NCBI GenBank assembly: GCA_044337105.1
Contig: JBIIOE010000003.1
Coordinates: forward strand, 4,850 to 68,849
DNA from: Bdellovibrionota bacterium
GTDB lineage: Bacteria > Bdellovibrionota_C > UBA2361 > OMII01
DNA: 64,000 nucleotides
Direction: 5' to 3'
Shown: one piece after another, positions 7,185 to 11,776 of the stretch
Numbering within the stretch: position 1 is the first letter of the stretch
How the letters are laid out: each line of letters opens with the position of its first letter
The notes under the pieces: model-generated
Seen by the model: the letters and a program-made list of their open reading frames with translations, nothing else
What the model was told of the DNA's origin: nothing
Database searches by the model: none
Translations under genes and position numbers: made by a program

Positions 7185-7301
7185 ATGGCTTCCCCAACCA
7201 AGATCACCTGGAACAAGAGAAACGCCCGTGATGCCAAGAAGATAGCCCGGCGTAATAAGCGAGTTAGAGTAGCTGCGCGCAAGGCTACTACTGCCGCATA
7301 A
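7185..7301 (+). CDS. Small, highly basic 38-aa protein (hypothetical)
   Basis: Below the ORF-track cutoff. TAGGAG Shine-Dalgarno at 7172-7177, 7 nt before the ATG. Translation: MASPTKITWNKRNARDAKKIARRNKRVRVAARKATTAA (13 of 38 residues are K or R). A strong hairpin terminator follows. Confidence 0.45.
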   Translation: MASPTKITWNKRNARDAKKIARRNKRVRVAARKATTAA

Positions 7302-7330
7302 CTGAAAAGCTTTCTTTTCGATTGAGTAAT

Positions 7331-7359
7331 GGGACCACTGGGTGGTCCCGTTTCTTTTT
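7331..7359. terminator. Intrinsic terminator shared by convergent genes
   Basis: GGGACCAC-TGG-GTGGTCCC perfect 8-bp stem at 7331-7349, followed by GTTTCTTTTT. It sits between the small ORF (stop 7301) and the minus-strand gene ending at 7365. Confidence 0.65.
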
Positions 7360-7364
7360 GGCCG

Positions 7365-9410
7365 TCACATACTAGGTGACAGCAAGACCCGCAAAATCTG
7401 CTTGAGAGTTTCGGTTGCGGGGCCTTCCGCATGAATGACATGAAATGCCGGATGCGATGTCGCTACATCCAAGAACCGAGCTCGATAGTGGGTTAGGTCC
7501 GTTTCTGTGTGATATTTCTCAGTCAGTGATTTGCCTGCTTTGACCAGGCGCTCTTGAGATGTCGCTACAGGAGCATCCAAGATGAAGTGGAATTCTTTCT
7601 CTCCCGGTAAGGGTGCTGTCGGATCGTCAGTCAGTTTGGTGGCAACACCCCTGTCAGCAACGCGCCATCCAAGCTCTTTGAGTTTCGCAACAACGGTGGA
7701 TTTACCAACCCCATCGTTACCATCGATAACTATCAGGTTCTCCTGTTGCTTGGTTATGAGCTGAGAGATCCATGCAGAAAACTTTCGAAGAACCTGACGA
7801 CGATGAGAGCGTAGGTTCTTGCGCTGTGGGTCGAGCTCCGCGAAAGAGACGCCATCGGTACGATCGGCGATAAAAAGACTATCATATCCGAATCCATGCT
7901 GCCCGGATTGGCCAGTGGCGATCTTTCCGCTACAGGTAGCTTTATCTTCGAAGAGTATAATCCCATCGGGTGTTGCCACAACAAGAGCTATCTCGAAGTA
8001 TGCTTCCCGGTTGCCCTCGGGGATATGCGTCATCATCTCGAGTACGCGCATGTTGTTGGCTTGGTCGATCTCATCGCGGAGGCGTTTTGAGTTGGTGTGC
8101 GAGACAAGTTTTCCATCGTGAGAGAATTCGCAATCAGAGAAACGAGCCGACCAAACTCCAGGGAGGCCGTTAAGGGCAGGGATAACGAGACCAGAATCCT
8201 CGGAGATCGCTATCCTGCCGGACGCTTTTGCATACTCGACCGCTTTTATGCGGGCGTTCTCGAGGAATGTTTCACCGCTCTCTTCAGGCTCTTTATCTGT
8301 ACGTATGACCTCCAAAGGGACATCGAGTGCGTCTAAGATCGCCTGAAATTCATGAACTTTGTGCGGGTTGCCGGTACCGAGGGAGAATCGAAGCTCAGGG
8401 TTAGTGTTGTGCGGAATAGCGTAGTACCGCTCCTCTTCGAGCGCCGGACCTGCGACGATCTCAGCCAGAAGTCGCCACTTCTCGAGCACCTGATTCGAAG
8501 AACCGCCGCTTCTCCACACGTCCTTGTCGAGGGAGCCCAAGAAGAAGTGTCGGAATCGGCCACAGTCGGGACTTACCTCGCCATATACGAGCTCCCCGTC
8601 CTCGGCGATAAAGAGGCACAGATCGTAGAGAACGATATCGCGCGCGCCTAAGAATTCGCTTAAGGCGTGGTTCATACGAAGAGCCGTGTGCCGAGCCTTT
8701 TCGACATCCAGAAAGTAATCGGCTAGGCGATCGGGAAGTATCTCGTCTGCTACACGTTTGCCGGTCTCTGGGTGTTCGAGAGGATTGCGCCAGTCGAAGC
8801 GAACGAGAGTGGTTGGATAGGGAAGTTCGTTGGCTATCGTGCTTCCCGCAAGGGTAGGATGGGTTGAACGGATCATGGCACCGCCCATGCCGAGGTAGCG
8901 ATGTTTTGAGGTTCCTGTGTGGGTGTTCTTTACGATCGTTTCAATTGGAGCAGCCTTAGGCAGGCGACTAATCTCTTCGCGGGAGAGATCCTGTGGGGTA
9001 AAGGGAGGAATCTTATACTTTTTAAACTCGGCCTCTGTGGGCATGACAAGCTTGGAGATAATCAGTTTCTGGTCTAGCAGGACCTCCTGGTATGCATGCT
9101 TGATACCGGCACGCTTTAAAACCTCTAGAAACGACCTCGAAGTTTCGAGGCGGATATGATCTGAGCCTGGGACCACATCGCAGCGGTTGTGAGTGAACGA
9201 ATACACCGTCGGCTTGAAGCGGATCGCAACGAGACCTTTGCCGAGATACCGAACGTCTTTACTCTCTCCTTCGATCACTTTAGGAAGTTGCTCGAAATCA
9301 ATGAACGATGAGGTAATAGATCCGCTTATCTCTCCCGCTGCGAGCTGTTTGAAGTTGTCAGGAAGGCCAGAGAGAGAAGCAGATTCGTTATTTGATGATG
9401 GAGAGGCCAT
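7365..9410 (-). CDS. Three-domain fusion: SAICAR-synthetase(PurC)-like, RdgB/HAM1 non-canonical NTP pyrophosphatase, P-loop nucleotide kinase-like
   Basis: 681 aa. Residues about 50-305 are PurC-like (IETIVKNTHTGTSKHRY; IVLYDLCLFIAEDGELVYGEVSPDCGRFRH). Residues about 340-548 are RdgB-like (SLGTGNPHKVHEF, EESGETFLENARIKA, SEDSGLVIPALNGLPGVWSARF, GFGYDSLF, RSHRR). Residues about 556-681 are P-loop (IVIDGNDGVGKST). Confidence 0.85.
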   Translation of the reverse strand: MASPSSNNESASLSGLPDNFKQLAAGEISGSITSSFIDFEQLPKVIEGESKDVRYLGKGLVAIRFKPTVYSFTHNRCDVVPGSDHIRLETSRSFLEVLKRAGIKHAYQEVLLDQKLIISKLVMPTEAEFKKYKIPPFTPQDLSREEISRLPKAAPIETIVKNTHTGTSKHRYLGMGGAMIRSTHPTLAGSTIANELPYPTTLVRFDWRNPLEHPETGKRVADEILPDRLADYFLDVEKARHTALRMNHALSEFLGARDIVLYDLCLFIAEDGELVYGEVSPDCGRFRHFFLGSLDKDVWRSGGSSNQVLEKWRLLAEIVAGPALEEERYYAIPHNTNPELRFSLGTGNPHKVHEFQAILDALDVPLEVIRTDKEPEESGETFLENARIKAVEYAKASGRIAISEDSGLVIPALNGLPGVWSARFSDCEFSHDGKLVSHTNSKRLRDEIDQANNMRVLEMMTHIPEGNREAYFEIALVVATPDGIILFEDKATCSGKIATGQSGQHGFGYDSLFIADRTDGVSFAELDPQRKNLRSHRRQVLRKFSAWISQLITKQQENLIVIDGNDGVGKSTVVAKLKELGWRVADRGVATKLTDDPTAPLPGEKEFHFILDAPVATSQERLVKAGKSLTEKYHTETDLTHYRARFLDVATSHPAFHVIHAEGPATETLKQILRVLLSPSM

Positions 9411-9486
9411 AATACCTATATTTTTGGGGAAATTCTCGCGCTAGCTGGAATGATACTGAGCCTGTAGGTGTAGTCAATGCTCAGCA

Positions 9487-9640
9487 GGCGGCCTGTTCCG
9501 GACCGCGGAGCTTCCGCTCCGCTTGCTAGCATCGCTACGATCCTAAGGGAAGGCGGACTAGAAAGTCCGCGGTCCGTGTTCGCTCCGCTTGCGAGGAGCG
9601 CTACGCGCCTTGCAGAATGCGGACTCGTTTGTACCGGGCC
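9487..9640 (-). repeat. REP-type palindromic repeat cluster (2-3 units, inverted relative to the arrays beside the RAYT gene)
   Basis: GGACCGCGGAGCTTCCGCTCCGCTTGCTAGCATCGCTACGATCC and GGCGGACTAGAAAGTCCGCGGTCCG are reverse complements of the unit found at 19.5-21.1 kb. Confidence 0.75.
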
Positions 9641-9820
9641 GGCAGGAGCTATATCCGTCCTTGAGCGAATGTCAGGCTCATTATCAGAATGGCATCGCGG
9701 CGCATGAATCAAAGAGTCCGAGCACATCATAGTTCTTCTTGAGAGCTATGGCAGGGACGATAGATCTGCTCCGTAGAATCATCCTCCTACGAGCACGCGC
9801 AGCTCGTTCTGTTAATCTAC

Positions 9821-11776
9821 CTACTGATTTACTCGTACGGCCAAGGCTCCAGTAGCTTTCTCCCCGTTCTGCATCATCCGCAGCGCGGTAGTGAGCTCTT
9901 TCGGAGCCCCGTTCGATGTATTGATCGCCGCTGAGCGTTTAGTGCCGAACGTAATTATGCCGAGCTGTGCAAGTTGCGCCTCTTGAGCTCGTATTTTCTC
10001 TTTGGATGGGATTGGGCCAGCAATACCGCTGTATAAGCGATTATAGCGTGCTGATTCGGGGATCGATGCACCGACAGGATACTCCTCACCGCGCAGAAAG
10101 CCGAACTTGAGAATGGCATACGTAAGCCGAGGTGACGATACGCCCGCCGATTCAATGACCCGAGCTATGTGAGCTTCGGGGTGCTCAGGTACGTTAGAGA
10201 GCTCCTCACCCTCGCTCTCGATAAGATTTTGTAGCGCCTTAGCAGAGCAGAAGTGTCGAGGGGCATACGTTCCCTCTGAGAGAGTGGCGGTTATAACTGG
10301 GGTAACGGTTGATAGAGTCTTGAGGTACTCCTTGAACTGCTCTGGTATGGTGATCGCGTCCACGAGTAGTTGCGGGTTCTCCTGCAACAAGTCCAGTGCG
10401 ATCTGTGGGCCGACTATCTCGGAAATCTGCTCTTCGACATCGACTGCAATCAAGGCAGCTCCTAGCTCGTTTCTGCTCAGTTCACGGTATATCTGGTGCT
10501 GCAGATCTTCGTTTTCGACAAAGCGAGCGATGGGCGCTAGCTCAGCAGCAGCGATAGCGTTGTTTGGGGCTTCTTGCGCGCGCTCTCTCTCCTCTTGAAG
10601 AGCCTCGGCCGGCCCGATCGATGAGGCACGATTTAAAAGTGCCCGCAGTCGGGTCGCTCGCTCGCTGAGCTTAGCAGCGTCGCAATCCAGGAGATGCTGT
10701 GTGAGTACGCTGTCGAGCCCAGTAAGAGCTTTCTGCCGTTCTGCGAGCGTTGCTGACAAGAAGCGTTTTCCCAGGATCTCAAATGACGGCAGGTTCTCTT
10801 GTGAGAGGTAAAAGTCCATCGCAGCAAGCATCACCTTGGGGTCGGAGATCCTCTCAACGTCGGGACGAATACGCTCAAATCTGGTGTCCATCTCCTTGGC
10901 AAGCGCTTGTGAGGCGGCTTGTAATTGTTGCTCAGTAATCTCGCGCAGCGCTTGGTGGTATAGAGCTTCGGATTGGTCACCGTTGTTCGGAGAGAGGTCA
11001 TCAGAAAGCGTCGCCGCATCTGCGCAGAGCCGACGGAGTGAGCGCCAGTCAGAGAGATCGTTGGCTTGAGATAGCTCACGCGAGGCTTGCGATGCGCGGG
11101 CGGCGAGCTCTTGTGCACGATCGTTCACACCATCCAATGAATAGCGTGCCAAATCTTGCCCGGCTCTGGTCAGGTCGCTCAGCGTCCGGAGGACAGGAGC
11201 TATGAGTTGGGCGTATTCCTGCCGGATCGTGACTAATTTTGCTTTTACTAGCGTTCTCGCACGATTCTCATAGATGCCGATAGAGGCGCCAGGTACTTTG
11301 ACCAAATCCCCTTTTATCATAGCGGCGAAATCAGCATATAGGCTCCTGCTTACCGCAAGTCCTTCCCGCTCGGCGATTTTCACAAACAGCTGCTCTAGGG
11401 TCTTGCTATGTATTGCACTGAGAATCGTCACTTGTGCAAAGTACTGCGGTACTTTGGACATCTCGTCGAAAAACATAGCCTTTCGCAGTAGATCTGCAGC
11501 TTCGTTGTCCCTTGTATAGAGCGCGTCAATCGAGCTTTTGAGTGAGTCCACTGAATCAGTGAATTTCCTTATGCCGGAGCGTATATGTTGTATAGAAGCG
11601 AGGCGCGTATTCTTGCCGTCGCAGATGAGCTTCTTGCGTAAGTCTGAGAGGCCGCTTGAGAGAGCGGTGTGGAGCGTCGAATCGTCATAGATTCGGGCTG
11701 GAAGAATAGTGCAATGGCTCAAGGAGTCATCAGAGACACGAGATTGTTGTGAGTGATTTGCAGTCGTGGTTTTCAT
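9821..11776 (-). CDS. Hypothetical 651-aa protein, predicted mostly alpha-helical (island gene 6)
   Basis: Long uninterrupted ORF with protein-like composition; only short antisense ORFs overlap it. I recognise no motif. No clear Shine-Dalgarno at ATG 11776. Confidence 0.7.
   Translation of the reverse strand: MKTTTANHSQQSRVSDDSLSHCTILPARIYDDSTLHTALSSGLSDLRKKLICDGKNTRLASIQHIRSGIRKFTDSVDSLKSSIDALYTRDNEAADLLRKAMFFDEMSKVPQYFAQVTILSAIHSKTLEQLFVKIAEREGLAVSRSLYADFAAMIKGDLVKVPGASIGIYENRARTLVKAKLVTIRQEYAQLIAPVLRTLSDLTRAGQDLARYSLDGVNDRAQELAARASQASRELSQANDLSDWRSLRRLCADAATLSDDLSPNNGDQSEALYHQALREITEQQLQAASQALAKEMDTRFERIRPDVERISDPKVMLAAMDFYLSQENLPSFEILGKRFLSATLAERQKALTGLDSVLTQHLLDCDAAKLSERATRLRALLNRASSIGPAEALQEERERAQEAPNNAIAAAELAPIARFVENEDLQHQIYRELSRNELGAALIAVDVEEQISEIVGPQIALDLLQENPQLLVDAITIPEQFKEYLKTLSTVTPVITATLSEGTYAPRHFCSAKALQNLIESEGEELSNVPEHPEAHIARVIESAGVSSPRLTYAILKFGFLRGEEYPVGASIPESARYNRLYSGIAGPIPSKEKIRAQEAQLAQLGIITFGTKRSAAINTSNGAPKELTTALRMMQNGEKATGALAVRVNQ

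Follow-up and report, generated by a model that had tools for sequence, protein, structure and literature searches.

A PurC-like/HAM1/mini-kinase fusion protein of a Bdellovibrionota bacterium: homology to Cns3 and a possible role in diazepine nucleotide synthesis

The window analyzed here is a stretch of 64,000 nucleotides from a Bdellovibrionota bacterium (assembly GCA_044337105.1, contig JBIIOE010000003.1, positions 4,850 to 68,849). Its minus strand carries an uninterrupted open reading frame (ORF) of 681 codons plus a stop codon, free of internal stops, which encodes the protein P0001. P0001 is the single-polypeptide arrangement of a recurrent module made of a PurC-like domain, a small kinase and a HAM1 domain, which occurs with or without HisG and HisA-HisI-HisE. 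The PurC-like and kinase-like domains are homologous to parts of Cns3, a fungal protein of a pentostatin cluster, and genes for the early steps of histidine biosynthesis are linked to the module in its relatives. We consider it somewhat probable that P0001 is an enzyme of a coformycin/pentostatin-type 1,3-diazepine nucleotide, fed by the histidine pathway of the host itself.

Domains and active-site residues of P0001

The initial annotation of this DNA described three domains in one polypeptide. The description holds in Pfam, in AlphaFold2/Foldseek for the N-terminal and P-loop domains, and in the family homologs; NCBIfam and PDB sequence searches concur (Table 1). Residues 1–31, ahead of the PurC-like domain, are predicted to be disordered. 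The PurC-like/HAM1/P-loop order is found in about 20 independent metagenome proteins, 44–77% identical to P0001, and therefore the fusion is genuine and not an assembly artefact. The frameshift or misassembly that the annotation had raised as an objection is contradicted by these independent fusions and by the intact frame.

The N-terminal domain (N-domain) matches Pfam SAICAR_synt (PF01259; SAICAR, phosphoribosylaminoimidazole-succinocarboxamide) at residues 45–303 with 29.7 bits against a cut-off of 20. With the PurC equivalog TIGR00081 it scores 32.7 bits, below the cut-off of 189.9. The AlphaFold2 model of residues 1–330, built on the family alignments, has a predicted local distance difference test (pLDDT) value of 86. 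The best Foldseek matches of this model are exclusively SAICAR synthetases (E 6e-17, template modeling (TM) score to target 0.81–0.85). In the model the N-domain has the SAICAR-synthetase fold, in agreement with the pattern noted at first.

The N-domain was mapped residue by residue onto E. coli PurC as the reference, in which R94, S100, D175, R199 and R215 contact the ribotide of carboxyaminoimidazole ribonucleotide (CAIR) and Glu179 is a conserved ADP-contacting residue (PMC3261824). The ribotide contacts are kept in P0001, where K161, T167, D263, R285 and R300 align to the five residues in that order. Across the family D175, R199 and R215, together with E192 and D196, are kept, R94 is replaced by Lys, and S100 by Thr or Ser. 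Lys11 of E. coli PurC becomes Glu in P0001, and Lys177 becomes a Cys (Cys265) that is invariant across the PurC-like family. At Glu179 and at Asp191, the latter presumably a functional residue as well, the alignment shows no acidic counterpart in the N-domain; the PurC sequences DFKLEFG and GDEFSPD read DLCLFI and YGEVSPD in P0001. The identical substitution pattern occurs in every family member examined, including those from fungi, viruses, the Candidate Phyla Radiation (CPR) and phages.

Compared with canonical PurC (EC 6.3.2.6; TIGR00081; E. coli 2gqr/2gqs, M. jannaschii 2yzl), the N-domain has the fold and the ribotide contacts in common, whereas it lacks the Glu179/Asp191 counterparts, carries Cys for Lys177 and stays under the equivalog threshold. 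Because of these two losses and the invariant Cys, ATP-dependent ligation of Asp by the N-domain is unlikely; the same alignment makes it plausible that the domain binds an aminoimidazole-carboxamide ribotide moiety. The 'ligation' chemistry first suggested is therefore abandoned. As to whether the PurC catalytic residues are retained, which the annotation had left to be checked, the answer is yes for the ribotide contacts and no for the counterparts of Glu179, Asp191 and Lys177. A canonical purC, the other point left for checking, is present separately on contig C69 of the same genome (204 bits), and the N-domain of P0001 is not the genome's purC.

Two cysteines of the N-domain, Cys265 (window ~8616–8618) and Cys283 (~8562–8564), are invariant family-wide within the motifs DxC and DC(G/M)R. 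In canonical PurC their positions are occupied by Lys177 and a residue of Ser/Thr type, and both cysteines are candidate catalytic or metal-binding residues.

The HAM1 domain matches Pfam Ham1p_like (PF01725) at residues 344–547 with E 1e-43 over model positions 3–186 of 186, and narrowly misses the TIGR00042 cut-off (138.2 against 145.35 bits). In a per-residue alignment with E. coli RdgB (1k7k), the motifs TGNxxK, EExGxTFxENA, (D/E)DSGL, PGxxSAR, GFGYD and SHR are all aligned, and the RdgB/HAM1 assignment of the annotation is confirmed. P0001 thus has, at full length, all the catalytic and substrate-binding motifs of the RdgB/HAM1/ITPA house-cleaning (d)ITP/XTP pyrophosphatases, and its HAM1 part looks catalytically intact. 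Unlike the housekeeping enzymes, it is fused, and its lineage accompanies the PurC-like gene across phyla and phages. Three further HAM1 genes are found in the same genome.

In a quick tree with a small housekeeping sample (n = 9), the module-linked HAM1s, whether fused, adjacent or phage-borne, split from eight of the nine housekeeping HAM1s, the branch receiving 97% in the Shimodaira–Hasegawa-like approximate likelihood ratio test (SH-aLRT). By this tree the module-linked HAM1s form a lineage of their own and a co-evolving member of the module. A HAM1 fold in a non-housekeeping context, as here, is also seen in KomB, the Kongming dITP sensor (8zsg), a weak PDB match to the HAM1 domain of P0001 (E 2.6e-6). 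In KomB a His replaces the catalytic Asp and the protein is inactive (bioRxiv 10.1101/2024.12.20.629578). Unlike KomB, the HAM1 of P0001 retains the Asp of EDSGL, and no SIR2 or deaminase partner stands among its neighbors; a KomB-like sensor role was rejected since the catalytic Asp is kept. HAM1 as a simple replacement of HisE was likewise rejected as a general rule, for CPR operons carry HAM1 together with a HisE domain.

The P-loop domain gives 25.6 bits with Pfam Thymidylate_kin/P-loop (PF02223, residues 556–672), under the cut-off of 27, and 23.5 bits with TIGR00041 (Tmk), under 83.25. The AlphaFold2 model of residues 551–681 has a pLDDT of 94, and its best Foldseek matches are the thymidylate kinases 2pbr and 4s2e, with TM scores of 0.72–0.76 to the query and about 0.5 to the target. 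Thymidylate kinase (Tmk), of ~200 aa with nucleoside monophosphate (NMP)-binding and LID parts, has the P-loop NMP-kinase fold in common with it. The dTMP-kinase-like P-loop of the annotation is therefore right as to the nearest structures, while the domain falls under the Pfam and NCBIfam cut-offs and amounts to about half a Tmk. Its motifs DGNDGxGK, DRG, ILD and YHTxxDLxxYR are invariant. A true tmk is located on contig C107 of the same genome.

Homology to Cns3 and linkage to early histidine genes

One distant fungal match pointed to Cns3 (CCM_04438) of Cordyceps militaris. In BLASTP the PurC-like domain of P0001 aligns to Cns3 residues 241–543 (E 5e-24) and the P-loop domain to the N-terminal 'NK' domain of Cns3 (E 6e-10); Pfam detects SAICAR_synt in the middle of Cns3. 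The motifs EGESK, KPTxYS, VRFDWRNP, DxC, DC(G/M)R and DKDxWRxGGS are common to both proteins. Cns3 belongs to the cns cluster and is associated with pentostatin production (PMC8719641, PMC12648386). Published accounts describe it as NK plus HisG, and its PurC-like middle goes unmentioned (PMC8719641).

Cns3, encoded in the cns1–cns4 cordycepin/pentostatin cluster, and P0001 both combine a small P-loop 'NK' domain with a re-tooled PurC-like domain that bears the same active-site substitutions. The two differ in arrangement: Cns3 runs kinase, PurC-like, HisG, without HAM1, whereas P0001 runs PurC-like, HAM1, kinase, without HisG. Their identity is only about 27%.

The actinomycete pentostatin, coformycin and adechlorin clusters have at their core a HisG homolog (PenA/AdeC) and a SAICAR-synthetase homolog (PenC/CofB/AdeA), together with a short-chain dehydrogenase/reductase (SDR; PenB/CofA) (PMC12648386, PMC13055916). 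The gene logic is alike, in that a PurC homolog is recruited along with HisG and the early histidine steps. Unlike in those clusters, the SDR partner is not conserved beside the present family, and HAM1 and the mini-kinase take the partner positions instead.

The PurC-like family has few members: 206 of 1.84 billion representatives match its profile at E≤1e-30, and they stand well clear of canonical PurC. A scan of species-representative genomes gave 80 loci, the gene contexts of relatives being determined by clustering of all ORFs and by BLAST. Several architectures occur: kinase plus PurC-like (~400 aa); PurC-like, HAM1 and kinase, as in P0001; HisG, kinase and PurC-like; and adenylate kinase and/or HisG fused to PurC-like plus HAM1. 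Proteins of ~1220 aa from giant viruses (e.g. Fadolivirus) and bdelloid rotifers unite kinase, PurC-like, HisA, HisI, HisE and HisG in one chain, and HisG-kinase-PurC-like fusions are found in giant-virus bins. No partner accompanies the PurC-like domain more constantly than the mini-kinase, which is fused to it or lies next to it in nearly every branch; in the distant branch an AAA_28/33-type small kinase stands in its place.

In the group closest to P0001, with PurC-like parts 44–60% identical, separate genes encode the three parts side by side, either as purC-like, ham1, kinase or with the order permuted. This group includes Falkow-, Uhr-, Parcu-, Vogel- and Saccharibacteria, Woesearchaeota, Myxococcales/Polyangiaceae, Planctomycetia, Oligoflexia, Herpetosiphon and others. 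Upstream of the module lie hisG at about 15 loci and a fused hisA-hisI-hisE at 11 (by BLAST) or 15 (by clustering), and purA stands beside the module at 5 loci. The conserved partners of the PurC-like genes are thus his genes, not pur genes.

Four module-bearing genomes of 0.7–1.6 Mb bear on the destination of these early steps. They are incomplete metagenome-assembled genomes (MAGs) of unknown completeness, so that a missing gene is read as 'not found' and not as proven absent. Histidinol dehydrogenase (hisD) was not found in any of the four, nor was any confident gene of the HisA/HisF family in addition to that of the module: two of the four have the module copy only, one has none, and one has a borderline match of 20 bits. 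Because neither hisD nor a further HisA/HisF-family gene was found, the early his enzymes of these incomplete genomes cannot make histidine, which leaves the PurC-like enzyme as the necessary end point of the pathway.

In the literature searched, no description was found of the module outside actinomycetes and fungi, of the HAM1 partnership or of the PurC-like middle of Cns3, and nothing relevant was found on phage or HAM1 ties to the coformycin/pentostatin pathway. The PurC-like/HAM1/mini-kinase fusion, and HAM1 as a co-evolving member of the module, are new here. The annotation had taken the three-way fusion for undescribed; this form is indeed unmentioned in that literature, but it is no isolated oddity, being shared by about 20 proteins and belonging to a recurrent, Cns3-homologous module.

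Several further loci show other combinations. Megaphage contigs of 230–554 kb, with 26% GC and TAG-recoded late genes, carry hisG, the kinase, ham1, a cytidylyltransferase-like gene and the purC-like gene. In one of 553,716 bp and 26% GC (L091:3782-8795) the order is hisG, mini-kinase, ham1, cytidylyltransferase-like nucleotidyltransferase, purC-like; an RNA-ligase-like gene lies upstream, and the flanking genes are open only with TAG as a sense codon, whereas the module genes are TAG-free. In the bdelloid rotifers Adineta and Rotaria, fusions of ~1225 aa (P0150–P0164) with the kinase/PurC-like/HisA/HisI/HisE/HisG order resemble those of giant viruses, which suggests horizontal transfer into animals.

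The distant branch (31–35% identity; Arthrobacter, Chitinophaga, Aquimarina, Sphingobacterium, Nitrospirales and others, L053–L087) has a conserved four-gene cassette (e.g. L086:2331-5627) encoding a 453-aa protein, the PurC-like protein, a 106-aa protein and the AAA_28/33-type small kinase; the 453-aa and 106-aa proteins have no Pfam match. In Bradyrhizobium and relatives (L040–L049, e.g. L045:9935-11443) the PurC-like part is fused or adjacent to a haloacid dehalogenase (HAD) phosphatase, with a cytochrome P450 nearby. Such a locus looks like a nucleoside natural-product cluster, and the HAD-phosphatase fusions fit a phosphorylated product that is later dephosphorylated.

Proposed pathway and competing explanations

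We propose that the gene is a horizontally acquired, one-chain version of a three-part nucleotide-remodeling module. The housekeeping HisG, HisE, HisI and HisA of the genome would supply phosphoribulosylformimino-AICAR phosphate (PRFAR), or its ribosyl isomer ProFAR, from ATP; a his operon fragment with housekeeping hisG and hisI is present on contig C214. The N-domain would take PRFAR/ProFAR and cyclize it to an 8-keto-coformycin-type 1,3-diazepine nucleotide 5′-phosphate. Formation of the diazepine would be the committed step toward coformycin/pentostatin-type inhibitors of adenosine/AMP deaminase. CofB is reported (Ren et al. 2020, PNAS) to cyclize the histidine-pathway branch-point intermediate, by a Dieckmann reaction, to 8-ketocoformycin 5′-phosphate, and it is said to do so without a phosphorylated intermediate, with ATP only as an activator. 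A reaction of this kind would fit the missing counterparts of Glu179 and Asp191 in P0001.

The kinase and HAM1 domains would adjust how far the pathway nucleotides are phosphorylated. The mini-kinase could provide the pathway with (d)ATP or add phosphate to its product; alternatively, it may bind ATP in a regulatory capacity. HAM1 would return an inosine-like non-canonical NTP, either the diazepine NTP or ITP/dITP, to the monophosphate, thereby supplying monophosphate and/or protecting the RNA and DNA of the producer. Judged from its motifs, the HAM1 pocket would suit a 6-oxo-purine-like triphosphate (8-keto diazepine NTP, (d)ITP) and not the N1-substituted phosphoribosyl-ATP (PR-ATP). A sanitizing, return-to-monophosphate role is favored over a HisE-like one because the ITPase pocket appears canonical and HAM1 co-occurs with HisE in CPR operons. 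The earlier suggestion that the protein acts on a non-canonical purine nucleotide very probably holds.

If this is true, the coformycin/pentostatin pathway would reach beyond a few actinomycetes and fungi into bacteria of predatory type, megaphages, giant viruses, and ultra-small symbionts among the bacteria and archaea; though rare, the module would have been transferred very widely. Pentostatin, an inhibitor of adenosine deaminase, is in clinical use. The module would point to an unstudied link between the synthesis of a toxic nucleotide analog and the cleaning or control of its triphosphate, and the 'NK' domain and unannotated middle of Cns3 emerge as an ancient conserved pair. P0001 would be a compact one-gene target for the chemistry, since the host's own histidine enzymes would supply the substrate.

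Several points weigh against the diazepine reading. In a motif scan a classical SDR of the PenB/CofA type lies within 6 kb at only 3 of ~95 loci; none is found in the window neighborhood of P0001, where the scan leaves room for one elsewhere in the genome. Since the SDR is not conserved near the module, the final product may differ from coformycin/pentostatin. The link to the bacterial diazepine enzymes PenC/CofB runs only by way of Cns3 and the gene logic. No his gene stands beside the P0001 ORF in this window. The P-loop domain comprises only ~126 aa, against an aligned Tmk length about twice as great, and its role may be regulatory instead of catalytic. A kinase and a pyrophosphatase on one chain look futile unless they act on different nucleotides. 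The presence of HAM1 beside HisE in CPR operons also counts here, HAM1 being not simply a HisE substitute.

It is possible, though on the whole doubtful, that the early histidine pathway is used as proposed while the PurC-like enzyme makes a different ATP-derived nucleotide. The product could be another ring-remodeled purine, an AICAR/ZMP-related compound or a signaling nucleotide, the kinase and HAM1 setting the level of mono- versus triphosphate. The linkage to hisG and hisA-hisI-hisE and the lack of late his genes indicate the substrate family only, not the product, and the SDR again is not conserved nearby. The cytidylyltransferase-like nucleotidyltransferase between ham1 and purC-like in megaphages hints at nucleotide conjugation, and the distant branch is paired with the 453-aa and 106-aa proteins. 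Two observations speak for the diazepine over such a product: two domains are homologous to Cns3, a protein with a genetic tie to pentostatin (PMC8719641), and HisG is paired with a SAICAR-synthetase homolog in the pentostatin and coformycin clusters already known (PMC12648386, PMC13055916).

A purine-salvage or house-cleaning enzyme, in which a working SAICAR-synthetase-type ligase, an ITPase and an NMP kinase would act without relation to the histidine pathway, is improbable. The SAICAR_synt match above the Pfam gathering score, the intact HAM1 and the purA gene beside the module at 5 loci agree with it. The TIGR00081 score far under its cut-off, the loss of the Glu179/Asp191 counterparts and the Lys177-to-Cys replacement do not, and neither do the canonical purC elsewhere in the genome, the conservation of his instead of pur partners, and the small size of the family and its distance from canonical PurC. 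It is scarcely credible that misassembly or a frameshift created the ORF, or that it is a functionless pseudogene in decay. In favor of this are the metagenome-type source assembly of 225 contigs, the separate genes that encode the three parts in many genomes and the 104-nt relic of the 3′ end in a congener; against it, the fused order recurs in independent proteins down to 44% identity, the frame is intact, all HAM1 and P-loop motifs are kept, and both modeled domains, PurC-like and P-loop, have high pLDDT.

Given a diazepine product, organisms that exploit other cells might use the module as a weapon or counter-measure, a speculation that we think rather unlikely to hold. A deaminase-blocking diazepine nucleotide would be made from ATP and an ITPase would destroy (d)ITP, whereby scavenged adenine nucleotides would be protected and/or adenosine-deaminase-based immunity of the RADAR or Kongming type disarmed. 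The module was found in CPR and DPANN episymbionts, Myxococcota, a Herpetosiphon, a Bdellovibrionota-like genome, megaphages and giant viruses. Predatory members are known in the Myxococcota, Herpetosiphon and Bdellovibrionota lineages, and RADAR/Kongming-type defense works through ITP or dITP. P0001 as part of a known defense system was rejected, PADLOC giving only a chance-level P-loop match.

Genomic setting of the gene

Table 1. Positions of P0001, its domains and adjacent sites in the window
Feature	Position	Strand	Basis
Whole ORF (protein P0001)	7365–9410	-	Open frame; full-length homologs 44–77% identical with identical domain order
PurC-like (Cns3/CofB-type) domain, residues ~41–320	8451–9290	-	PF01259; AlphaFold2/Foldseek; BLASTP to Cns3; E. 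coli PurC residue map
HAM1/RdgB domain, residues 339–550	7761–8396	-	PF01725, E 1e-43; PDB RdgB/ITPase matches, E ~1e-22
Short Tmk-like P-loop (kinase-like) domain, residues ~556–681	7368–7745	-	Weak Pfam/NCBIfam; AlphaFold2/Foldseek; alignment to Cns3 'NK'
Promoter-like site, TTGACT, 16 nt, TATCAT, ~40 nt upstream of ATG	9450–9477	-	Consensus scan; count not above shuffled expectation
GC-rich hairpin between the P0001 gene and a convergent small plus-strand ORF	7328–7352		T-run on plus strand

The P0001 gene follows dnaA-dnaN-recF-gyrB and is convergent to gyrB. A search with P0001 of 24 genomes of the same genus and 16 of the same order detected only ordinary HAM1 genes of ~200 aa and not this gene. 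A metagenome scan with the whole protein yielded one true homolog locus (L089), without synteny to the window, and a 77% identical homolog lies in an unrelated genomic context. Because it was not found in the 40 related genomes and its 77% homolog has different surroundings, the gene is a mobile single-gene accessory unit. The initial annotation had assigned it to the core side of a neighboring island, which is not upheld.

A relic of the gene is seen at a contig end of the same-genus genome G015 (L115:8195-8298), where 104 nt are 81% identical to the 3′ end (window 7393–7496). The rest of the gene is absent there, and a REP-like match is located nearby. The relic suggests that the gene was once present there and was lost, or that its 3′ segment is mobile.

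Directly upstream, a 104-aa ORF (9416–9730, minus strand) overlaps REP-like repeats, with repeated gcaagcggagcg units at ~9487–9640. It has neither Pfam nor PADLOC matches and is probably not a gene. A 651-aa ORF (9821–11776) and the genes beyond form a separate GHKL-ATPase island. These neighbors (the 104-aa ORF, the 651-aa ORF and the genes beyond) were rejected as functional partners, being absent beside the homologs.

In the gyrB-proximal gap, a small, very basic ORF of ~38 aa (window 7186–7302, plus strand) ends just before the hairpin of Table 1. Since the T-run is on the plus strand, the hairpin looks like the terminator of this small convergent ORF; for the P0001 gene it is weak at best, and the terminator that the two genes were thought to have in common is not borne out.

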